64,000 nucleotides of DNA from Patescibacteria group bacterium (GTDB lineage Bacteria > Patescibacteriota > Patescibacteriia > UBA1558 > GWA2-36-10). Where the stretch lies: the NCBI GenBank assembly GCA_028718865.1, contig JAQUKX010000004.1:35753-99752 (forward strand), in the 5' to 3' direction. Numbering within the stretch: the stretch's first letter is position 1; each line of letters begins with the position of its first letter. Position numbers and translations under genes: made by a program. The notes beneath the pieces were generated by a model. It was not told where the DNA came from. It worked only from the letters and a program-made list of their open reading frames with translations, and did not search any database. Shown here piece after piece: positions 21,921 to 45,237 of this stretch.

Positions 21921-22579
21921 TTGATAATTTTAGAAAATAATAAATCTTTCAGAATCTTAAAAGCACCGCTTAAGCCCTGACCAAATTCGTGATAAATAAC
22001 AGTAATGGGTACTTCTTTTATTTTTAATTTATTTTCATGAGCTTTGACCATAATTTCATTACAATGCGCTTTGCCGTCCTGCTCAATGATTATATTTTGA
22101 GCTGTAGTTCTGGTCATAGCCCGAAAGCCGCTTTGTGGATCACTTAACTTGATTCCCAAAAATACTCGGTTAAAAATTCTAGCCAAAGGAAAAATAATTT
22201 TTTCCTTGAAAAAAGGCAATTCCGATTTTTTGCCCAAAAAACGAGAACCAAAAACTATATCATAATTTTCTTCAACAATTGGCTTAATAACTTCCTTTAT
22301 TTCCTGAGCCAAAAATTGACCGTCAGCGTCAAAATGAACAATAATATCTGCTCCTTGACTTAGAGCGTATTCATTGCCAGTTTGCAAGGCTGCTCCTTGA
22401 TCGCGATTTATCCTATGGCGCAAAACATCAACTGGATAAGAGCAAGCCAGCTGATAAGTGTCATCGCTGGAAGCGTCGTCAACTACTACTATTTTATAAG
22501 GCAAAGCCGACAGGTCTTTGAGTACTTGCCCTATTCTTTTTTGCTCATTATAAGCGGGAATGACTATGAAGATGTTCAT
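21917..22579 (-). CDS. GT2 polyprenyl-phosphate glycosyltransferase (GtrB/DPM1-like)
   Basis: 220 aa; IVIPAYNE, VVDDASSDDT, ...HFDADGQ..., ...SGFRAM... motifs. Confidence 0.85.
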   Translation of the reverse strand: MNIFIVIPAYNEQKRIGQVLKDLSALPYKIVVVDDASSDDTYQLACSYPVDVLRHRINRDQGAALQTGNEYALSQGADIIVHFDADGQFLAQEIKEVIKPIVEENYDIVFGSRFLGKKSELPFFKEKIIFPLARIFNRVFLGIKLSDPQSGFRAMTRTTAQNIIIEQDGKAHCNEIMVKAHENKLKIKEVPITVIYHEFGQGLSGAFKILKDLLFSKIIK

Positions 22580-35835: not shown

Positions 35836-36117
35836 CTATAGTACTGCGTCTTTGCAGGCTTTGGCTACTCGGAATTTGACCACGGTTTTGGCCGGAATAT
35901 TGATGGTCTCACCGGTGGCTGGGTTGCGTCCCTGTCTGGCAGCTCTAGCTTTTTTTACTAGTTTGCCCAATCCAGGAACAGTAAATTCTCCGTTCTTTTT
36001 GACTTCGCTGTAAGCGACGTCAGTCAAAGTGTCCAGCAGAGTAGACACTTCTTTTTTGCTCATGTTGGTCTTTTCGGCCAAGACATTGAGCAACTGTGCT
36101 TTGCTTAGTTTTGCCAT
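35836..36117 (-). CDS. hup: DNA-binding protein HU
   Basis: 93 aa; ...GEFTVPGLGKLVKKARAARQGRNPATGETINIPAKTVVKFRVAKA... HU/IHF arm. Confidence 0.9.
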   Translation of the reverse strand: MAKLSKAQLLNVLAEKTNMSKKEVSTLLDTLTDVAYSEVKKNGEFTVPGLGKLVKKARAARQGRNPATGETINIPAKTVVKFRVAKACKDAVL

Positions 36118-36247: not shown

Positions 36248-36283
36248 TAAAAAATTACCCAGCCCCTCGGCTAAGAGGCTGGG
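36248..36283 (-). terminator. intrinsic terminator of GC-rich islet A (minus strand)
   Basis: Minus strand: ACCCAGCCucuuagccgagGGGCUGGGUaauuuuuu, 27 nt below the stop of 36309..36610. Confidence 0.65.
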
Positions 36284-36308
36284 TAAGCTGTCTGCCGCAA
36301 AAAAACGG

Positions 36309-36610
36309 CTAGATCAGGTAGGCGATGTTGTAGCTACAACGAACCGTGTGTCCGTTGACAGCCCCACACTCGTGGCAGGGCTCGGCCGGTTGCTGAGAAC
36401 GGTCATTGGACTGATTACTCTGTTTTTCCTGGCTCATGCTAGCATCTCCTTGGGTTTGTTCCTGAGGGTTGACTGACGCTAAAATAGCGCCTCTTTCTTT
36501 CTTGATTTTCTGCCAACAACTGACAGGGTTGCAAAAAGCTTGTCCGCAATAAAGACAACGCCACTCTCCTTTGGGCAGGCTGCTTTGACAGCCGCTTTTT
36601 TCATCAGACA
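36309..36610 (-). CDS. hypothetical small Cys-rich protein (islet A)
   Basis: 100 aa from internal Met MSDEKSGCQSS...; AGGAGGA SD 5 nt upstream (gcttcAGGAGGAagcttATG); Cys motifs C-x2-C ... C-x4-C and C-x2-C ... C; GC-rich codons unlike the host. Confidence 0.55.
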
Positions 36611-36627
36611 TAAGCTTCCTCCTGAAG

Positions 36628-36876
36628 CTAAATGGCCGTATTGATGCCTCGTGGATCAAAGCCGCCGCCACACATGCAGTAGATGCTATCATCAGGACAG
36701 CGACAATTCTCCCTAAGAATAAAGGCAATGGAATGCTCGTAGCCACGACGGTGGCTTGAATTTGCTCTACAGCGCTCCAACAAAGCGTAGAGACTATCCA
36801 AAATGGCGATTTTGAAAGGTCCGAGGACCGGCCCTTTCTTGGGCTGATGCCTCAAATCAACTGACAACTGACTCAT
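36628..36876 (-). CDS. hypothetical small protein (islet A)
   Basis: 82 aa; SD GGGAGGTAAGGAGCA then ATG; C-terminal CRCPDDSIYCMCGGG; 17-nt gap to the next gene. Confidence 0.5.
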   Translation of the reverse strand: MSQLSVDLRHQPKKGPVLGPFKIAILDSLYALLERCRANSSHRRGYEHSIAFILRENCRCPDDSIYCMCGGGFDPRGINTAI

Positions 36877-37147
36877 TGCTCCTTACCTCCCTGTTGGTTG
36901 AAAAGATGAAAGTGAACCTGGAACTTAGCTAAAATTGAAATGTACTAGCCAAAAAACAACAAAAAAATCGCCTAAGTATTGGCGATTCGCGTTTTGGTGT
37001 TTAGAGGCTTGATTATTATTACCAGCAAAAAGCGACCGCCTAAGGCGAGAGCAAAATAATGCTAATAATGACAATCAAATTTCTAAACATATATTTATCT
37101 TAAATATAATAACATAAAATATAAAAATGTCAAATTAAAAAATGATT

Positions 37148-37180
37148 GAGCGGGCGGAAAGCAGTGCTTTCCGCCCGCTC
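37148..37180 (-). terminator. intrinsic terminator inside islet A
   Basis: Perfect 15-bp GC-rich stem GAGCGGGCGGAAAGC-agt-GCTTTCCGCCCGCTC; on the minus strand it is followed by aaucauuuuuu. Confidence 0.65.
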
Positions 37181-37184
37181 TTGC

Positions 37185-37325
37185 CTAAAAATGACGCTCC
37201 AATCCCTGGAAAAACTGCCGGATGATTTCCTCCTTTCTGGCTTTGGCTTTATTGTCCTCAGAACCGGCCGGCGAAGCCGAAGCAGGCAGATTTTCTCGGC
37301 CGGGAAGCTGATCTCTCGGATTCAC
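37185..37325 (-). CDS. possible 46-aa ORF with GTG start (islet A)
   Basis: GGAGGAgtagtcGTG then NPRDQLPGRENLPASASPAGSEDNKAKARKEEIIRQFFQGLERHF stop; hand-translated, below the ORF-track cutoff. Confidence 0.25.
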   Translation of the reverse strand: MNPRDQLPGRENLPASASPAGSEDNKAKARKEEIIRQFFQGLERHF

Positions 37326-37342
37326 GACTACTCCTCCTCTGC

Positions 37343-37558
37343 TTAAGGAAAAATCCTAGCCAAGCAAGACCGGAGGTCTTGCAGAACAAAGCGCCGGCAC
37401 TCATCGCCGTCGCAGCAGTCAAAAACCATACAGCCACGGCTGTACTCATAGCGAGCTGGCGCTCCGCAATTACTGCAGATTCTGACCTGACCGCTGGCAT
37501 CCAGCTGCGACTTGGGGTTCAACTGGTATTCCCTAGGTTCTTCCCTGTACTTGCTCAT
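37343..37558 (-). CDS. hypothetical small Cys-rich zinc-ribbon-like protein (islet A)
   Basis: 71 aa MSKYREEPREYQLNPKSQLDASGQVRICSNCGAPARYEYSRGCMVFDCCDGDECRRF...; SD gtcAGGAGGagctgacaATG. Confidence 0.55.
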   Translation of the reverse strand: MSKYREEPREYQLNPKSQLDASGQVRICSNCGAPARYEYSRGCMVFDCCDGDECRRFVLQDLRSCLARIFP

Positions 37559-37810
37559 TGTCAGCTCCTCCTGACTGCTTGTGGTTTGTTTGACCCTGAA
37601 TTGAAGAAGACTTCTAGACTTGGATGTGAAAAGAACAATCAAAAAAGGCCGCTTTTAGGCGCCCTTAGTTTCACTATACTCAAATTATCGGATATATGAA
37701 AAAACTAAGTCGCCAAACGACCAATGAAAAAGTAAAAGCTAAAGAATGACGAATTTGATCTTATATCCATAAATAAATCATAACAAAAATAAAAGATAAG
37801 TCAAGCAAAA

Positions 37811-38821
37811 TTAATCTTTTGCTTCAAAATCCAAAAAATAACCGAACCTAGCTCTTCCTCTATATTGCGGTTTTTTCAAATTCAAAGTAGTGATTATGCC
37901 GCGCGGACTCAAATCATAACCTTCTATTTTTACATCCCGACCGTCAACAATGGCCGTGGCCATTACCGGTTGAGGATGGCCTATGGCATAAGCCAATTTT
38001 ACCAAGACTTCTTTGGCCTGATATTTTTTCAAATACTTTGTAGCCAGATAACGAGCCATATAAGCAGCGCTACGATCAACTTTGGTGGCATCCTTACCGC
38101 TATAGCAGCCACCGCCGACTGGAATCTGCGGGCCATAGTTATCCACAATAATTTTACGTCCGGTTAAGCCGGTATCTGCCTCAAAACCTCCTTGGACAAA
38201 AGGACCAGCTGGATTGATAAAAATATTTTTATAATCCGGTACAATAGTATCTACTATTTCTTTTTGAACCAGTTTTCTCAATTGCTCAATCTCAATCTCC
38301 GGACTATGCTGGGTGGAAATAACTACGGTTTCCACTTGGCCGTTATTGATAGTGATTTGTGATTTGCCATCGGGCCGCAAATATTTTGCCAGCTCTGACT
38401 GGCCTTTTACCCTTACTTCCTCGAGCTTTCTGGCCAAATTATAAGCCAAGACATGTTCGCGAGGAAGGAGCTCTTTGGTTTCGCTGCTAGCATAACCCAC
38501 CATGATACCCTGATCGCCAGCGCCACCGGTATCTACTCCCCGGGCAATATCAGGGCTTTGCTTAACAATATTGACGAATATTTCCAATTCTTCATCATAG
38601 CCGATTTCTTTATAAACTTCCCTGGCAATTTGGGCGGCGTCAAACTTGGCGCTGGTAGTCACCTCGCCCATAATAACTAGCTGGCCATGCCCGCCCAAAG
38701 CTTCTACTGCCACCCGACTGTCGGGATCTTGCCTCAAACATTCATCTAAAATAGCATCCGATATCTGGTCGCAAACTTTATCCGGATGACCGTAAGTTAC
38801 ATTTTCCGCTGTCTTTAGCAT
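37811..38821 (-). CDS. metK: S-adenosylmethionine synthetase (short form)
   Basis: 336 aa; GHPDKVCDQISDAILD, GGAGDQGIMVGYA and other MetK motifs. Confidence 0.88.
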   Translation of the reverse strand: MLKTAENVTYGHPDKVCDQISDAILDECLRQDPDSRVAVEALGGHGQLVIMGEVTTSAKFDAAQIAREVYKEIGYDEELEIFVNIVKQSPDIARGVDTGGAGDQGIMVGYASSETKELLPREHVLAYNLARKLEEVRVKGQSELAKYLRPDGKSQITINNGQVETVVISTQHSPEIEIEQLRKLVQKEIVDTIVPDYKNIFINPAGPFVQGGFEADTGLTGRKIIVDNYGPQIPVGGGCYSGKDATKVDRSAAYMARYLATKYLKKYQAKEVLVKLAYAIGHPQPVMATAIVDGRDVKIEGYDLSPRGIITTLNLKKPQYRGRARFGYFLDFEAKD

Positions 38822-38842: not shown

Positions 38843-38990
38843 AAAAACTCTCCTTTAAGAGAGTGGATAAAAATTATCTTTCCCTCACAAAGGGTTGGAC
38901 TGAGCACCTTTCTCTGCCTGCCAGCTGGCAGACAGCAAGATGGTTGCCGGCGGATCACAGAGCCAATTCTCTCCCCGCTCTCTTGATAAA
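38843..38990 (-). promoter_or_regulatory. SAM-I (S-box) riboswitch with terminator expression platform, in metK leader
   Basis: Minus strand: UUAUCAAGAGAGCGGGGAGAGAAUUGGCUCUGUGAUCCGCCGGCAACC...AAGGUGCUCAGUCCAACC...GGGAAAGAUAA (P1 UUAUC/GAUAA, conserved AGAGNGG, GGCAACC, GGUGC, AGAUAA), then hairpin CCACUCUCUUAAAGGAGAGU plus UUUUUU before the metK ATG. Confidence 0.8.
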
Positions 38991-39109
38991 ACTTTTCCGC
39001 AACTGCTGCGAAAAATATTAAATTGTTAAAAATAGTATAGCTTATTTTGAAAATTTTGACAAATATGCAATAATAATAGAGTAAAAAATAAAAAAGGAGA
39101 AATATAAAA

Positions 39110-39655: not shown

Positions 39656-40387
39656 CTACTCAATTATCACTTTGGTGCCTAGCTGAGCCCACCAGTATAA
39701 ATGCTCCATGTCTTTATAAGCAACATTGACACAGCCGTGGCTCATAGGCTGACCAAAATTATTATGCCAATAAGCGCCGTGAATGTAATAACGGTAGGTT
39801 TTGGTAGTAAAATGCAGATTCCATTTGGTATTGGGATAATCAAAGCCTACCCCGCCATAATGTTTGACTGGTACTTTATCCAAAATTTTAAACTCTCCTT
39901 TGGGCGTTGGCGTACGAGATAAGCCGCCGGAAATAGGAAAAGAGCCAAACTCTTTACCGCCAAAATAATAAGCCAAAGTTTGTTTTTTTAAATCCACTTT
40001 GATTATTTTTTCCAATTGCACTGGCTCGGGGTTGAGAGGATCAAAGCCGGCAGCTACTTCTGTTCCGTCTAGATACAAATCACCGTCGCTGTCTGGATTC
40101 ATCAGTCCAGTACCCAAAATCAATTCCCAATAATCATTGAGATAATCATTATCCGAATCAACGTCAATTAATCTTTTACCGTTTCCGTGACGAGGCGAAT
40201 AGCCATTTTTAATTTCCAAGCCATCAGGATAACCATCGCCATCGCTATCGGGATTAAAAGGATCAGTAAAATAAATATTCAATTCATCATAATCAGACAA
40301 ACCATCGCCATCGCTATCTATCACTGCCTGAGCTGACAAGCCTAAAGGAAAACTTAAAAAAATAATTGCCAAAAATATTTTTCTCAT
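39656..40387 (-). CDS. L,D-transpeptidase (YkuD domain) with N-terminal Asp-rich Ca-binding (thrombospondin type 3-like) repeats
   Basis: Signal peptide MRKIFLAIIFLSFPLGLSAQA (start 40387); four D-x-D-x-DG repeats (DSDGDGLSDYDE, DSDGDGYPDGLE, DSDNDYLNDYWE, DSDGDLYLDGTE); catalytic YIHGAYWHNNFGQPMSHGCVNV. Confidence 0.8.
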   Translation of the reverse strand: MRKIFLAIIFLSFPLGLSAQAVIDSDGDGLSDYDELNIYFTDPFNPDSDGDGYPDGLEIKNGYSPRHGNGKRLIDVDSDNDYLNDYWELILGTGLMNPDSDGDLYLDGTEVAAGFDPLNPEPVQLEKIIKVDLKKQTLAYYFGGKEFGSFPISGGLSRTPTPKGEFKILDKVPVKHYGGVGFDYPNTKWNLHFTTKTYRYYIHGAYWHNNFGQPMSHGCVNVAYKDMEHLYWWAQLGTKVIIE

Positions 40388-40448
40388 TTTTATTATTCTA
40401 AATAATATTTGATATATTAGCATATTTTTACCTAAAATTACAGCTGAA

Positions 40449-40477
40449 TTGACAGAGAGCGTATATTATTGTATATT
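40449..40477 (+). promoter_or_regulatory. sigma70-type promoter for islet B plus-strand gene
   Basis: TTGACA-17 nt-TATATT; followed by about 115-nt leader containing three AAGGAG(G) repeats. Confidence 0.5.
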
Positions 40478-40598
40478 AAAAAAATACAAAGCCCTTTACA
40501 ACCCTTGCAATAGAAAGGAGGTTATTGAAGGAAATCAAGGAGGAGTTGGTTGTAAAACCAGCAAAAAACTTTCCCTGGGGAACAAGGAGTTGGCACGC

Positions 40599-40955
40599 AT
40601 GTGCAAGCAAAACGGAACGGCCATTCTTGGTCAATTCACCAGCAGTCTCTTCGGACTGGATCGTCCTCGCAGTGAAGCCCAAGCGGCCGAAATTGCCAAG
40701 CAAGCAGTCTTGTCTTGGGCTGCTGACCCGAGGCGGATCCGCTCCGCCTACGGTGCTCTTTCCGGAGCAACCAACGAGGCCCGACGCCTCGCCGCTCTGC
40801 CTGAGAACGACCCCCATCGACTACTGGCCACCGCCATGGTGGCCAGGATGAATGAGCTCGCCACCGACGAGCTCAAGAAGAGTCGGCAGTTCGCCGAGAT
40901 CATCAACGAGCTCAACGCTTCCCTTTATCCTCCTCGTCAAGCCGCCACGGCTTGA
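40599..40955 (+). CDS. hypothetical alpha-helical protein (islet B)
   Basis: 118 aa MCKQNGTAILGQFTSSLFGLDRPRSEAQAAEIAKQAVLSWAADPRRIRSAYGALSGATNEARRLAALPENDPHRLLATAMVARMNELATDELKKSRQFAEIINELNASLYPPRQAATA; SD AAGGAG 9 nt upstream; GC-rich codons. Confidence 0.5.
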   Translation: MCKQNGTAILGQFTSSLFGLDRPRSEAQAAEIAKQAVLSWAADPRRIRSAYGALSGATNEARRLAALPENDPHRLLATAMVARMNELATDELKKSRQFAEIINELNASLYPPRQAATA

Positions 40956-41002
40956 TCCTCTACCTCTCGCCCCTAGCTCCCTGAGCTAGGACCATGCCCC
41001 GC

Positions 41003-41035
41003 TTGCTGCCCGCAGTAGGCGGGGTTTTCTTTTTT
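41003..41035 (+). terminator. intrinsic terminator after islet B plus-strand gene
   Basis: GCCCGCagtagGCGGGGttttcttttttt. Confidence 0.6.
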
Positions 41036-41103
41036 TAAACTAAAAAATAAGGCGCCAGACAAAACTGTCCAGCGCCCAAGAGGAAAGAGGCCGATGTTTC
41101 GGC

Positions 41104-41481
41104 CTAGTCCCAACCGGCCGGAGCCGGATCCGGAGGTACGATGTGTCCGACCAGTTCTAGATAGCTCTCCAGATCCTGCGGTTTGACCGCAGCGGCTGAG
41201 CGTAAGTTGCGCCAAGCCACCACTACTTCGTCGCCACCAGCCAAACCGGCTGGCAGAAAGAGCTTGAAGCCGCGGTTGCTGGGAAGATAGACGGCAAAAC
41301 GGAAAAGGGTACGCCCATTTTTCTTGCCAGCCGGCTGCAAACAAGCTAGACGAGGCAGAGCCCATCTAGCCGCACGAATGTGGGGCCTGATAAAATATGC
41401 GGCTGCCCCGGGCGGAATGATGATCTTCTGCCCTTGGGCAACTTCAAAGCTGGGATTTTCCAAATGAATGCCCTGATTCAT
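41104..41481 (-). CDS. hypothetical protein (islet B), convergent with 40599..40955
   Basis: 125 aa MNQGIHLENPSFEVAQGQKIIIPPGAAAYFIRPHIRAARWALPRLACLQPAGKKNGRTLFRFAVYLPSNRGF...; SD cctGGAGGtcaaaaATG. Confidence 0.5.
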   Translation of the reverse strand: MNQGIHLENPSFEVAQGQKIIIPPGAAAYFIRPHIRAARWALPRLACLQPAGKKNGRTLFRFAVYLPSNRGFKLFLPAGLAGGDEVVVAWRNLRSAAAVKPQDLESYLELVGHIVPPDPAPAGWD

Positions 41482-41573
41482 TTTTGACCTCCAGGGAAGA
41501 GGGTGTTGTCAGGCACTCTTACTCCTTAATGCGGCGCCTAACTTATTAATATAAGCGGATTTTATAAGCAAAG

Positions 41574-42725
41574 TCAATACTGACGGCTCCGGCGGCTGGC
41601 TTGACGACTAAAACGATGCGCTTCTTCCCGACTTTGCAGCAGAATATTTTTTATACTATCGGTCAACTGCTTAAACTGCTTGTCGGCTCCTCTGGTATAG
41701 ACTAGTTTATCACCGGCTAATTTGGAAATACCGACTATCGGCACTCTGATATTTTTTAATTTAAAAAAATTATCCACAAAATCAACCTGCGGCCGGCCGC
41801 CATCCAGCATAATAATATCAGGCTGGGGCCACTCATGATGATTAAAACGCCTAGTTAAGACTTCAACCAAGGCCCGCAAATCATCGGCGGCCGGAGCGCT
41901 TTTTATTTTAAACAAACGATACTGACTTTTATCAGCTTGACCGTTACTAAAAACTACCATGGATCCATAAGGCTCCTTGCCAGCCAAATGGGATATATCA
42001 TAACCCTCAATGCGGCTCAGGCCGGCCATACCGAAATCATCACGGCTGATTAAAGAAGCATCGCTGATATGTTTGAGGCTGGCTATCAAATCTGGATTTT
42101 CTTTGGCCAATTTTTTGACCAATCTTTTTTTGTCGCCTTGTAAAAGCAAAATTATATTTTTTATATTATTTTTATATTTTGCCCGACTGACTTCGCCAAC
42201 ACAAATACCTGGACACAGACCTATCTGATAATCAAAACAAGGCCGGCCTTGCTTGGGCCGACAAGTGCTATAAGGGAAAAGGCGACGGATTATGCGCAAG
42301 GCACCGCGCAGTAAATGCTGAGCCTGATAAGGCCCAAAAATATAAGCCTTGCTTTTGGGAAATTTTTTTAGCTGGCGACCGCGGACAATAAACGGATAAG
42401 GATAATCACCTTTGGCAATGACTATGTAGATAAAAGAACGGTCATCGCGATCACGGACATTATACTTGGGCCAAAATTTCTTGATCAAATTGGCTTCCAA
42501 AATTACACTGTCAAGGATAGTCTCGGTTTTTTCGTATTTAATATCATTAGCTTGGGTAACCATCTCTTCTATTCTTGGCTCCAAATCTTTTCGAAAATAC
42601 TGGGAAATTCTCTTTTTGAGCGAGCCAGCCCGGCCAATATAAAGCACTCCTCTCTTTTTATCCAAAAAGCGATAAACGCCCGGTGTATCAGGAAAATTTT
42701 TAATTTTATTTTTCAAATTCGGCAT
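41574..42725 (-). CDS. uvrC: excinuclease ABC subunit C, short form lacking the C-terminal (HhH)2 domain
   Basis: 383 aa; GIY-YIG (PGVYRFLDKKRGVLYIGRAGSLKKR), Cys-rich region, UvrBC-like helix and RNase H-like domain (EGYDISHLAG...); ORF stops where the HhH region would begin. Confidence 0.8.
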   Translation of the reverse strand: MPNLKNKIKNFPDTPGVYRFLDKKRGVLYIGRAGSLKKRISQYFRKDLEPRIEEMVTQANDIKYEKTETILDSVILEANLIKKFWPKYNVRDRDDRSFIYIVIAKGDYPYPFIVRGRQLKKFPKSKAYIFGPYQAQHLLRGALRIIRRLFPYSTCRPKQGRPCFDYQIGLCPGICVGEVSRAKYKNNIKNIILLLQGDKKRLVKKLAKENPDLIASLKHISDASLISRDDFGMAGLSRIEGYDISHLAGKEPYGSMVVFSNGQADKSQYRLFKIKSAPAADDLRALVEVLTRRFNHHEWPQPDIIMLDGGRPQVDFVDNFFKLKNIRVPIVGISKLAGDKLVYTRGADKQFKQLTDSIKNILLQSREEAHRFSRQASRRSRQY

Positions 42726-42726
42726 T

Positions 42727-45237
42727 TTATTTTAAATACTCTTTTAAATATTTGCCGGTGACTGATGCTTGATTGGCAGCCACTTGCTCCGGCGTGCCTT
42801 TGGCCACCAATTTGCCGCCAGCCTGGCCGCCTTCTGGGCCAAGATCAATCAGATAATCCATAGATTTGATGACATGAAGGTTGTGTTCTATCACCACTAC
42901 TGAGTTGCCCTTTTCTATCAGTTTGTTTAAAACTTTCAATAACAATTCTATGTCATGATAATGCAGGCCGACTGTGGGCTCATCCAAAAGATAAAGGCTG
43001 CGCTTACCCAGCTTATGAGTAAGCTCTCTGGCCAATTTTATCCTTTGAGCTTCACCGCCCGATAAGGTGGTAGCGCTCTGGCCGAGTTGTAAATAGCCAA
43101 GCCCGACTTCCTGTAAAACTTTTAGCTTGTCAATGATATGATAATTGCCGTCAAAATAATCTATGGCTTCCTCAATGGTCAATTTCAAAACCTCGGCGAT
43201 ATTTTTGCCTTTGTGCTTTACTTGCAAAGTTTCTCTATTAAACCTCTTTCCCCGACAAACATCGCACTCCACATAAACTGCCGGCAAAAAATGCATTTCT
43301 ATCAGCTTGTAGCCAGCGCCGTCACAAGCCTCGCAACGGCCACCTGCCCGATTGAAAGAAAATCTTGATAAGGTATAGCCGCGCTCTCTGGCATCAGGCA
43401 ATTGGGCAAAAAATTCTCTGATTGGCGTAAATATGCCGGTGTAAGTAGCAGGATTTGACCGCGGCGTACGGCCAATCGGCGACTGGTCTATCACGATTAC
43501 TTTGGCTACATATTCACTGCCTTCCAAACGGGTCAAGTCCTGCAGTTTGAATCTACCGGGACGGTTTTTGATAGCAGCCAAATTTTTGTAAAGCACATCA
43601 TAGAGCAAAGTTGACTTACCGCTGCCGGATACTCCGCTGATGCCGACCAGTCTTCGCAGAGGTATTTCTACTTGCAGATTTTTCAAATTATTAGCTCGGG
43701 CGCCGATTAATTTCAAACTTTCCGTGCTCCTCTGCCGTCTTTTTTCAGGTACAGCAATACGCCTATCGCCGACAATATAATCCACTGTCATTGACTGAGC
43801 CGTATTTTTCTTGGCCAAAACCTGTTTGCTAGGCCCGGCAATTACGACCTCGCCGCCATGCACTCCAGCCATCGGACCCAAATCAACCAAATAATCCGCA
43901 TCCAAAATAGTCTGCTCATCATGCTCGACCACTATCACGGTATTATTTTTGGCTCGCAAAGATTTGAGAGTATCTATCAGCTTCTGAGTATCTCTTTCGT
44001 GCAGGCCTATGGTCGGCTCGTCCAAAACATAAAGGGTGCGGGACAAATGCGAGCCGATTTGCGAAGACAGCCTGATGCGCTGGGCTTCGCCGCCTGAAAG
44101 CGTATGCGCCCGCCTATCTAGCGTCAAATAATTCAAGCCAACTTTTAGCAAAAACTCCAAACGGCTGATTATCTCCACTACTACCGGCTCAGCTACTGCC
44201 CTGTCCTTGGTCGGCATTTTTTCAAAATAAGTATTGAAAAATTCCTGCGCTTGATCAATCGGCAAGGCTGTCAACTGGGCAATGTTTTTATTGCGGATTT
44301 TGACTGACAAAGTTTCGGGTCTCAATCTCTGGCCACCACAATCAGCGCAAGCTTCGTCGTTTTCCCAAGAGGCTACTCCCAAGCCATTACAAGCCGGGCA
44401 AGCGCCGTGCGGGCTATTGAAAGAAAAAAGCCTAGGCTCCACTTCGGGAAAAGAAAAATTGTCCTGCGGGCAAGTCCAATTGGAAGAAAGTAAAAACTCT
44501 TCGGGCTTTGACTTATCATCGTCAAATAAAACTGTCATTACCGATTGGCCGTAATCAAGGGCGTTTTCTACTGCCTCGGACAAACGGGATTGGTCGCTCA
44601 GCAATACTTTGTCCACGATGATATCTATGTCATGCTTTTTGTATCTGGCTAGATTTATCTTTTCATGCAGATTGTGATAGCGGCCGTCAATTCTGGCTTG
44701 AGAATAACCCAAAGCCAGATAATCATACAGGAGCTGATAATACTCGCCCTTACGGCCTCGGATCACTGGCGCTAAAATACTGACATACTGCTGCTTCAAT
44801 TCTTTGCCGCGCTTGACAATAATGTCTGCCATTTCATCCACTGACAGCTTTTGAATTTTTTGTCCGCAAAGCGGACAAAATACTTCTCCCAGCCGTGCGT
44901 ACAAGACCCGCAGATAATCATAAATCTCAGTCAAGGTGCCGACTGTGGAACGCGGATTGTGGCTCAAAGACCTCTGATCAATGGAAATAGACGGCGCTAG
45001 TCCGATAATCTCATCAACGTCTGCCGGCTTCATTTGTCCCAAAAATTGCCGCGCATAAGGCGATAGCGATTCAATATAGCGCCTTTGGCCTTCGGCAAAA
45101 ATAGTGTCAAAAGCCAAAGACGATTTGCCGCTGCCGGAAACGCCGGTGATTACCGTCAATTGATTATGAGGTATAGTCAGGCTGATATTTTTCAAGTTGT
45201 GCACTCTGGCGCCCTTGATAATTATATTTTCTTCCAT
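42727..45237 (-). CDS. uvrA: excinuclease ABC subunit A
   Basis: 836 aa; two ABC ATPase modules (GVSGSGKSSLAFDT / GVSGSGKSTLLYDV) with zinc-finger Cys clusters. Confidence 0.92.
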   Translation of the reverse strand: MEENIIIKGARVHNLKNISLTIPHNQLTVITGVSGSGKSSLAFDTIFAEGQRRYIESLSPYARQFLGQMKPADVDEIIGLAPSISIDQRSLSHNPRSTVGTLTEIYDYLRVLYARLGEVFCPLCGQKIQKLSVDEMADIIVKRGKELKQQYVSILAPVIRGRKGEYYQLLYDYLALGYSQARIDGRYHNLHEKINLARYKKHDIDIIVDKVLLSDQSRLSEAVENALDYGQSVMTVLFDDDKSKPEEFLLSSNWTCPQDNFSFPEVEPRLFSFNSPHGACPACNGLGVASWENDEACADCGGQRLRPETLSVKIRNKNIAQLTALPIDQAQEFFNTYFEKMPTKDRAVAEPVVVEIISRLEFLLKVGLNYLTLDRRAHTLSGGEAQRIRLSSQIGSHLSRTLYVLDEPTIGLHERDTQKLIDTLKSLRAKNNTVIVVEHDEQTILDADYLVDLGPMAGVHGGEVVIAGPSKQVLAKKNTAQSMTVDYIVGDRRIAVPEKRRQRSTESLKLIGARANNLKNLQVEIPLRRLVGISGVSGSGKSTLLYDVLYKNLAAIKNRPGRFKLQDLTRLEGSEYVAKVIVIDQSPIGRTPRSNPATYTGIFTPIREFFAQLPDARERGYTLSRFSFNRAGGRCEACDGAGYKLIEMHFLPAVYVECDVCRGKRFNRETLQVKHKGKNIAEVLKLTIEEAIDYFDGNYHIIDKLKVLQEVGLGYLQLGQSATTLSGGEAQRIKLARELTHKLGKRSLYLLDEPTVGLHYHDIELLLKVLNKLIEKGNSVVVIEHNLHVIKSMDYLIDLGPEGGQAGGKLVAKGTPEQVAANQASVTGKYLKEYLK

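Follow-up and report, generated by a model that had tools for sequence, protein, structure and literature searches.

Two independent GC-rich genes with conserved leaders in an AT-rich Patescibacteria genome

The 5′ untranslated region (UTR) of the Bacillus thuringiensis cryIIIA gene reportedly contains an element called STAB-SD, and 5′-terminal stem-loops reportedly act as stabilizers in the Bacillus subtilis aprE leader and in ermC (Hambraeus 2002; Sharp & Bechhofer 2003). ROSE and fourU are switches or thermometers that sequester the Shine-Dalgarno (SD) sequence, while ribosome stand-by sites are reportedly known from the work of de Smit and van Duin and from tisB. The classic layout of a CsrA target is a GGA in a hairpin loop and another GGA at the SD. 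In this study, a GC-rich locus, islet B, was analyzed in a 64-kb stretch of Patescibacteria DNA (contig JAQUKX010000004.1; hereafter the window, meaning the whole stretch). The islet has two convergent open reading frames, ORF1 and ORF2, both of which are annotated by NCBI as hypothetical proteins. It was found that they are two independent genes with conserved leaders, and their mRNAs may be stabilized and translation-gated. The concept of the orphan-SD stabilizer is confirmed in a review, according to which orphan SDs and 5′ stem-loops stabilize mRNAs without translation where RNase E is lacking (PMC3997798, citing Agaisse & Lereclus 1996 and Hambraeus 2002).

As listed in Table 1, the ORF1 leader resembles that of cryIIIA: its strong SD-like boxes lack a start codon and lie some tens of nucleotides ahead of the real ribosome-binding site, and mRNA decay in the group to which the organism belongs is expected to depend on the 5′ end. 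The AGAAAGGAGG of the window contains GAAAGGAGG, which is reportedly part of the cryIIIA element. Unlike STAB-SD, the ORF1 leader has two orphan boxes and a GNRA-loop hairpin instead of one box, the host is a Patescibacterium, and a stabilizing function is presumed by analogy. The ORF2 leader resembles the aprE and ermC stem-loops, since it would open with a stable hairpin (P1) at about +1, as placed from the promoter spacing, with a ribosome-binding element downstream. It differs from them in that the hairpin loop carries a conserved SD-like GGAG and that a second helix (P2) may occlude the true SD. This short anti-SD:SD helix (CCUC:GAGG) and the accessible ribosome-binding element upstream of it recall the SD-sequestering and stand-by leaders, although, unlike ROSE and fourU, P2 has only 4 bp and no both-sided covariation. 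The two leaders are also reminiscent of CsrA/RsmA targets: six ORF2 leaders have an A-N-GGAG loop and a GGAGG SD, and the ORF1 leader has multiple GGA boxes. A tblastn search with three CsrA sequences found no csrA gene at E ≤0.01 in the 64-kb window or the fetched loci, and the sub-threshold matches (E 0.017–0.24) lie only in unrelated Sphingobacterium loci. ORF2 has no sequence similarity to CsrA either. CsrA homology of ORF2 was rejected, and an involvement of CsrA is not supported within the DNA covered.

Two independent protein-coding genes

Both ORFs are real protein-coding genes. ORF1 was found where a first-pass annotation, made from the sequence alone, had placed it, with the expected 118-aa product. 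Comparison with its homologue in L001, a 568-bp ENA contig, gave 23, 23, and 57 differences at the three codon positions and a synonymous divergence (dS) of 1.29. Since the ratio of nonsynonymous to synonymous divergence (dN/dS) is 0.165, ORF1 is under purifying selection in the annotated frame. The convergent 125-aa ORF2 was likewise recovered with its GGAGG site. For the homologues of the ORFs, similarity is seen at the protein level where DNA alignment has already been lost. The same annotation had called islet B the most GC-rich stretch of the window, which is correct: in a 200-nt scan, the maximum at the islet is 0.645 against a window mean of 0.404, and no other place exceeds 0.575. From 40600 to 41500, the GC content is 54–67% per 100-nt window.

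The relatives of the two genes show that ORF1 and ORF2 are two independent monocistronic units, not an obligate cassette. In one related locus (L002), the order is uvrA, uvrC, ORF2, convergent ORF1, and ldt, the same layout as in the window, and the L001 contig has ORF1, both terminators, and the last ORF2 codons (...GWD*). On the other hand, four loci have an ORF2 homologue and no ORF1: it lies upstream of a csoR-thioredoxin operon in L003 and L004, beside a secreted TSP3 protein in L005, and, as a two-copy protein, after a radical-SAM gene in L006. In L007 (Candidatus Parcubacteria nzgw376), the order is uvrC, an ORF2-like gene, a capA-like gene of normal GC content, a convergent ORF1-like gene, and ldt. 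Thus, the check for co-occurrence gave a divided answer: the pair recurs in L002 and L001, while ORF2 stands alone in four loci and is kept apart from ORF1 by the capA-like gene in L007. Wherever ORF1 occurs, ORF2 is nearby. Since each gene also has its own promoter and terminator, with transcripts predicted from the terminator positions to end about 10 nt apart without overlap, the two are separate units.

A scan of GTDB species representatives with UvrC gave 35 loci, 25 of which (L007–L031) are of the type of the Candidate Phyla Radiation (CPR). Among these 25, only L007, the closest one (UvrC 66% identical), carries ORF1- and ORF2-like genes; they are absent from the other 24, whose UvrC is 38–66% identical to that of the window. 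Both families are best read as restricted to a narrow Patescibacteria (Parcubacteria-type) lineage. Eight of the scanned loci (L008, L016, L017, L019, L020, L022, L029, and L030) have the title "uncultured Gammaproteobacteria bacterium" with a UvrC 56–66% identical to that of the window; these GTDB titles look like taxonomic mislabels of CPR metagenome-assembled genomes. A palindrome, ATACCCC[CT]AGAGGGTAT, lies just upstream of the csoR-type repressor gene in L003 (1430–1470) and L004 (5825–5850), and is likely a CsoR operator. Because they share it, L003 and L004 are taken to be syntenic.

The relatives were obtained by an exhaustive phmmer search and exact-protein look-ups; none came from scanning JGI metagenomes, GTDB genomes, and IMG/VR for peptide patterns of the two ORFs. 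ORF1 is 67% identical to P0003 (in L001) and 58% identical to P0011 (in L002), and has a distant 138-aa homologue in L007 (hhalign E 1e-3). In all, only three close relatives and this distant one are counted for ORF1. Its C-terminus is a conserved RQAATA; the L007 homologue ends in ...AAATA where ORF1 ends in ...QAATA. This Ala-rich tail may resemble a degradation tag. A word-indexed homology search gave no relative of ORF2, while phmmer against 1.84 billion representatives found homologues down to E 5e-28: four single-domain relatives (P0004–P0007; 52, 49, 44, and 34% identity) and P0009, a 231-aa protein of two tandem ORF2 copies. Two long repetitive proteins that also scored were set aside, as they match only via a generic LP.G..GD hairpin motif. 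The 112-aa ORF2-like protein of L007 was matched with an hhalign probability of 94.5%. By these searches, the ORF2 family appears to be rare, with about seven members, all in AT-rich CPR-type DNA. The 231-aa two-copy protein (L006, 5592–6287) lacks the GWD tail described below. Compared with L002, ORF1 is 60% and ORF2 49% identical, while the neighboring proteins are 71–90% identical; thus, the two proteins evolve fast.

Neither protein belongs to a recognizable family, as had been noted at first: Pfam, PHROGs, NCBIfam, PADLOC, and PDB sequence-profile searches gave no match, the first four also none for the seven members of the ORF2 family, and Foldseek found nothing significant for either model in PDB and BFVD. 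Both had also been described as helical. This holds for ORF1, which was modeled as a seven-helix bundle (predicted local distance difference test, pLDDT, 62.6; no informative Foldseek match). It does not hold for ORF2: the AlphaFold2 model from five sequences (pLDDT 79; predicted template-modeling score 0.72) is a β-barrel with strands 44–54, 57–63, 72–76, 85–91, and 95–99, a single helix at 101–112, and a disordered tail ending in a conserved P.GWD-COOH. Inspection showed no signal peptide and no membrane segment in either of them, and they are best explained as small cytosolic proteins. The small five-stranded barrel resembles TRAM/OB barrels (the TRAM domains of RumA/RimO, archaeal stand-alone TRAM proteins, and IF1/eIF1A), and the weak top Foldseek matches of ORF2 are all OB/TRAM/IF1/S1/NfeD barrels. 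The ORF2 segment GFKLFLPAGLAGGDEVVVAW is similar to the TRAM motif "vFVPgalpGdeV.V.i". Unlike these proteins, ORF2 has an extra 40-residue N-terminal region, the C-terminal helix, and the GWD tail. The best E-values are only 0.2 and 0.11, and the seven members of the family have no Pfam match, including TRAM, S1, and CsrA. With no significant structural or profile match, the OB/TRAM-like and possibly RNA-binding resemblance is a weak lead, not a membership. The isoelectric point (pI) is 9.4–9.8 in four of the seven members and near-neutral in three.

Conserved leaders and 3′ ends

The promoter and the terminator that had been proposed for ORF1 were both recovered, the latter (proposed at 41003..41035) close to the computed stem and U-tract. 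The −35 and −10 boxes of the promoter are retained in L002 and L007. The three AAGGAG(G) boxes reported for the leader are also there, on the + strand at 40515, 40537, and 40584. AAGGAG occurs 58 times on both strands of the window where 38 are expected, and the ORF1 leader has the sole same-strand triple within 75 nt (window-wide p ~0.03 by a rough Poisson estimate). Conservation of the boxes is the stronger argument. All three are retained in L002, together with the block ahead of the working SD, and the leader is 74% identical to that of L002 (gaps counted) against 42–59% at four-fold degenerate sites of the flanking genes. The L007 leader is shorter, with a purine-rich, GGAGG-containing block, GAAGGAAGGGAGG, upstream of a proximal AAGGAG. 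Since the two upstream boxes lack a conserved start codon at a usable spacing (TTG lies 0–3 nt away, and one is CTG in L002), they are orphan SDs. The first-pass suggestion of ribosome stand-by sites is consistent with such a long leader with conserved extra boxes, and so is a STAB-SD-type stabilizer. The other suggestion, a regulatory upstream ORF with a TTG start at 40449, did not survive, and neither did a TTG-extended 168-aa frame: a conserved block, CCTGGGGAACAAGGAGT, lies 8 nt from the ORF1 ATG in the window and 7 nt in L001, and because of this one-base shift the frame is not kept among the relatives. Elsewhere in the window, boxes on one strand come close together only at 22351–22398 (−), where two AAGGAG lie 42 nt apart, possibly in another orphan-SD leader.

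The fold of the whole ORF1 leader is not significant (z = −0.56), and the structural claim is confined to the GNRA-loop hairpin. Its L002 version is GCUGGUU-GAAA-AACCGGC, where wobble changes preserve the pairing and the loop is still of the GNRA type. In the hairpin across the ORF1 stop codon, two pairs are changed on both sides through synonymous changes in L001 and L002. Both hairpins of the 3′ UTR are kept in L001 and L002 despite a loop or stem change, and L007 has the same two-hairpin layout. A single RNA structure spanning the ORF1 coding sequence was rejected: only the local hairpins are kept, and the covariation term of RNAalifold is positive, that is, penalizing.

The ORF2 leader has a covarying structure, which was analyzed with RNAalifold on five leaders (window and L002–L005); a covariance model, R1, was built from the same five. 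Six of the nine P1 pairs are changed on both sides. The loop consensus is A[AC]GGAG[UA]A.GA, followed by a CA-rich linker. Paired cells amount to 97%, compared with 38–51% when the 3′ partners are slid by 1–3 columns, and none of 500 shuffles matches the observed pairing or covariation. With the L007 leader included, 94% of the cells are paired. R1 recovers this untrained leader precisely in front of the ORF2-like gene, with 20.9 bits and an E-value of 0.017 over 531 kb, and has no other match in about 360 kb of the window and the loci of 25 relatives. Every typical ORF2 homologue carries the leader. P2 is kept in five of the six leaders via C-to-U wobble changes. Because P1 starts 6 nt past the −10 hexamer in all six loci (window, L002, L003, L004, L005, and L007), it should lie at the very 5′ end of the transcript. 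In Rfam, there is no gathering-level match in 40300–41700, and nothing for the islet at a permissive threshold; the best permissive match, of the terminator to anti-hemB, has 22 of the 49.5 bits required. As judged by alignment and covariation, the ORF2 leader is a new RNA motif that is absent from Rfam.

Three further candidates were discarded. The L006 leader is alike by eye and has ACAACACCUCAGUCGG(G)AGG in common with L003, but R1 gives it only 2.9 bits. R1 has no match in the ORF1 leader, and the leaders of ORF1 and ORF2 are thus not one motif. A conserved pseudoknot between the loop and the anti-SD was not retained, as the complementarity is inconsistent across the loci by eye. Both leaders of the window have UUCCCUGG(G/A)G before or overlapping the working SD, at 41484–41498 (−) and 40571–40585 (+), as an inverted repeat; this may be chance or a common element. 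At the 3′ end of ORF2, the terminator stem closes with G-U pairs on the minus strand only. Like stems follow the ORF2 homologues: GGCGC.AGA...GUCUGGCGCC in L002 and L004, and GGCGUCUAG...CCAGACGCC in L007.

Table 1. Features of islet B and its flanking genes (window coordinates)
Feature	Coordinates	Strand	Remark
ORF1 promoter TTGACA-17-TATATT	40449..40477	+	11/12 consensus positions
ORF1 5′ leader, ~115 nt	40484..40598	+	transcription start site placed from the promoter
Orphan SD-like box AAGGAGG	40515–40521	+	ORF1 leader
Orphan SD-like box AAGGAGGAG	40537–40545	+	ORF1 leader
GNRA-loop hairpin GUUGGUU-GUAA-AACCAGC	40545..40562	+	centroid structure of ORF1 leader
Working SD of ORF1	40584–40589	+	AAGGAG
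ORF1, 118 aa (MDD5749581.1, PHO91_02215)	40599..40955	+	coding by dN/dS and relatives
Stop-codon hairpin CAAGCC-GCCAC-GGCUUG	40938..40954	+	kept in L001 and L002
ORF1 3′ UTR	40973..41035	+	hairpin CTAGCT...AGCTAG at 40973–40989, then intrinsic terminator
ORF1 terminator	stem 40996..41025, U-tract to ~41035	+	predicted from sequence
ORF2 promoter TTGACT-18-TATATT	41548..41577	−	predicted from sequence
ORF2 leader RNA motif	41482..41547	−	P1 hairpin, linker, P2
P1, 9-bp hairpin	41542–41534 with 41516–41508	−	loop holds AAGGAG, 41527–41522
Linker AACAC after P1		−	ORF2 leader
P2, CCUC with GAGG of SD	41502–41499 with 41491–41488	−	4 bp, over true SD
SD of ORF2, GGAGG	41488..41492	−	
ORF2, 125 aa (MDD5749582.1, PHO91_02220)	41104..41481	−	β-barrel family
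ORF2 3′ UTR	41040..41105	−	small hairpin 41105–41088, then terminator
ORF2 terminator	stem 41077..41050, U-tract	−	predicted from sequence
ldt (YkuD-type L,D-transpeptidase with TSP3 repeats)	39656..40423	−	one flank of the islet
uvrC	41574..42725	−	other flank of the islet
uvrA	42727..45237	−	beyond uvrC

GC enrichment and competing explanations

In every locus, the ORF2 homologues have a GC content of 50–60% between flanks of 34–42%, and the ORF1 homologues reach 59–64%. In all members, the GC content at third codon positions (GC3) is above the expectation from host codon usage for the same amino acids (z +3.0 to +9.8). The preference of C over U in NNY codons is 0.57–0.81 in the members versus 0.15–0.33, and that of G over A in NNR codons is 0.47–0.65 versus 0.28–0.37. 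Is this due to translational selection? It is unlikely, because DnaK, DnaJ, HU, Hsp20, and GrpE show no GC3 shift. At the uvrC-ldt locus, the four-fold degenerate sites are near saturation (42–59% identical; ORF2 33%), while GC3 is still high or higher. Since this one locus has been kept in the window, L002, and L007 while such sites became nearly saturated, the GC excess is maintained in place rather than left over from a recent transfer, and GC-richness persists in both families rather than being an accident of this locus. The coding regions also seem prone to structure: folding z-scores lie between −2.3 and −3.8 for ORF1 and between −0.7 and −3.4 for the ORF2 family, whereas the controls average about −0.3. 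This is suggestive only.

Some explanations of islet B can be set aside with varying ease. GC-rich islands in the AT-rich genomes of CPR bacteria are often RNA genes, and a structured non-coding RNA in which the ORFs are high-GC artefacts would fit the folding z-scores of −3.4 and −3.7 and the numerous alternative-frame ORFs at the locus; this reading is essentially refuted already by the dN/dS and the excess of third-position changes in ORF1, the protein homology that outlasts DNA alignability, the confident structure model of ORF2, the lack of an Rfam match, and the positive covariation term of RNAalifold across the coding sequence. The paired cassette that the first-pass annotation had proposed, a two-gene module of the toxin-antitoxin or regulator/effector kind, was not borne out and is very improbable. 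The genes are adjacent in the window, L002, and probably L001, both proteins are small, fast-evolving orphans, and the tail of ORF1 may resemble a degradation tag, but the genes are convergent with their own promoters and non-overlapping terminators, ORF2 lives without ORF1 or apart from it in five loci, and no toxin, antitoxin, or defence domain was found in Pfam or PADLOC. Unlike type II toxin-antitoxin genes, they do not form one operon, the partners are not obligate, and neither NCBIfam nor PHROGs gives a toxin or antitoxin domain. It is also rather unlikely that they are foreign or mobile cassettes, gained repeatedly and recently from GC-richer donors (phage, plasmid, or host bacterium) with a composition not yet ameliorated. 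Such gains would explain the atypical GC content in every locus, the enrichment of both C- and G-ending codons unlike in the host chaperone or HU genes, the patchy distribution with absence from 24 UvrC relatives, the four different contexts of ORF2, and the faster evolution (49–60% identity versus 71–90% for the neighbors). They agree poorly with the shared uvrC-ldt locus of the window, L002, and L007, a synteny across diverged genomes in which GC3 stays high at near-saturated sites. No integrase, transposase, terminal inverted repeat, target-site duplication, or flanking direct repeat was found at the locus, searches turned up no homologue in IMG/VR or PHROGs and, within 1.8 billion representative proteins, none from a GC-rich genome, and all promoters are of the host-type, AT-rich TTGAC-N17/18-TATATT form.

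I tentatively favor, at somewhat less than an even chance, the explanation that islet B has two independent genes with stabilized, translation-gated mRNAs, whose leaders are of the STAB-SD or stand-by type. Each gene would have a promoter of the sigma-70 type, a 5′ UTR that is structured and conserved, a coding region that is rich in GC and prone to structure, and two hairpins at its 3′ end. The SD-like boxes, whether orphan or in the loop, would recruit 30S subunits without initiation and, together with the 5′-terminal hairpin, may shield the 5′ end from 5′-dependent decay, as do STAB-SD and aprE-type stabilizers. They may also be stand-by sites that pass ribosomes to a partly sequestered real SD, the true ORF2 SD being occluded by the short CCUC:GAGG helix. 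The mRNA would live longer still because of its GC-rich, structured body and the two hairpins at its 3′ end. Several points weigh against this explanation. P1 was put at +1 from the −10 spacing alone. The 16S 3′ end and the RNase J/Y genes lie outside the window, no rRNA gene being within its 64 kb, and a canonical CCUCC anti-SD was assumed. A control, uvrC_740, folds at z −3.1, antisense strands fold as well as sense strands, and, as described above, the covariation term over the ORF1 coding sequence is penalizing. Stabilization alone also leaves the enrichment of G- and C-ending codons in every member unexplained. In L003, L004, and L007, the SD-like core of the loop is only the 4-nt GGAG, while the A.GGAG.A.G positions and the linker ACAACA are conserved; this would fit binding by a specific protein no less well than pairing to 16S. 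The restriction of the motif to the ORF2 family, rather than a general occurrence in the genomes, seems to favor gene-specific regulation.

These last points lead to the main rival of the stabilizer or stand-by explanation, autoregulation by ORF2, which is unlikely on balance, though less so than the explanations set aside above. Here, ORF2 would be a small RNA-binding β-barrel that recognizes the A-N-GGAG loop of its own leader and the GGAGG at the SD, in a feedback like that of CsrA or ribosomal proteins; in the clade of the window, its binding sites would further include the three AAGGAG boxes in the leader of ORF1, which would then be a regulated target. The motif occurs only upstream of ORF2-family genes and moved with the gene into four genomic contexts, conservation extends to the linker and to loop positions outside the 4-nt SD core, and the layout resembles that of a CsrA target. 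Moreover, the weak Foldseek matches are all RNA-binding barrels of the OB/TRAM/IF1/S1 type, the pI is high in four of the seven members, and the ORF1 leader has three similar boxes. However, none of the fold matches is significant, there is no similarity to CsrA and no Pfam hit to TRAM, S1, or CsrA, three members have a near-neutral pI, and most loci with ORF2 have no ORF1. A broader proposal, that the ORF2 family and its leader form an undescribed autoregulatory pair of protein and RNA motif in Patescibacteria, and that the GC enrichment reflects selection on a long-lived or dual-function mRNA, is a more speculative one and less probable still.

Other elements of the window and significance

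A second GC-rich stretch, 36250–37650 (−), with 0.55–0.575 per 200 nt, lies between the HU gene (35836..36117) and metK, and is probably the islet A of the first-pass annotation. It has two small operons of Cys-rich orphan ORFs, each with GGAGG sites and its own terminator: the first encodes 71 and about 46 aa from the ATG at 37556, and the second encodes 82 and 100 aa (with CxxC pairs) from the ATG at 36876. The GC3 z-score is +2.1 for a 145-aa ORF with a GTG start (36309..36746), which contains the 100-aa ATG-start ORF, and +3.3 for a 99-aa ORF with a TTG start (37343..37642), which contains the 71-aa ATG-start ORF. An S-adenosylmethionine (SAM; S-box) riboswitch at 38871–38992 (−), matched with 61 bits, immediately precedes the metK-like gene (37811..38821).

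CPR bacteria are uncultured, and hardly anything has been learned of how they regulate genes post-transcriptionally or of the small proteins specific to their lineages. Islet B offers a covariation-supported leader motif that has no entry in Rfam and goes with one rare protein family, as well as conserved orphan SD boxes outside Firmicutes. It also offers GC-rich synonymous codon usage that is held in an AT-rich genome beyond the saturation time of neutral sites, which is not easily accounted for by translational selection or by recent transfer. The islet B genes are a lineage-specific curiosity, not a toxin-antitoxin pair. If they are only two orphan proteins with stabilized mRNAs, the gain is a modest improvement of annotation. 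If the autoregulatory pair and the selection on mRNA are true, such GC islets would form a class of their own in AT-rich reduced genomes, that of armoured cassettes of small genes.

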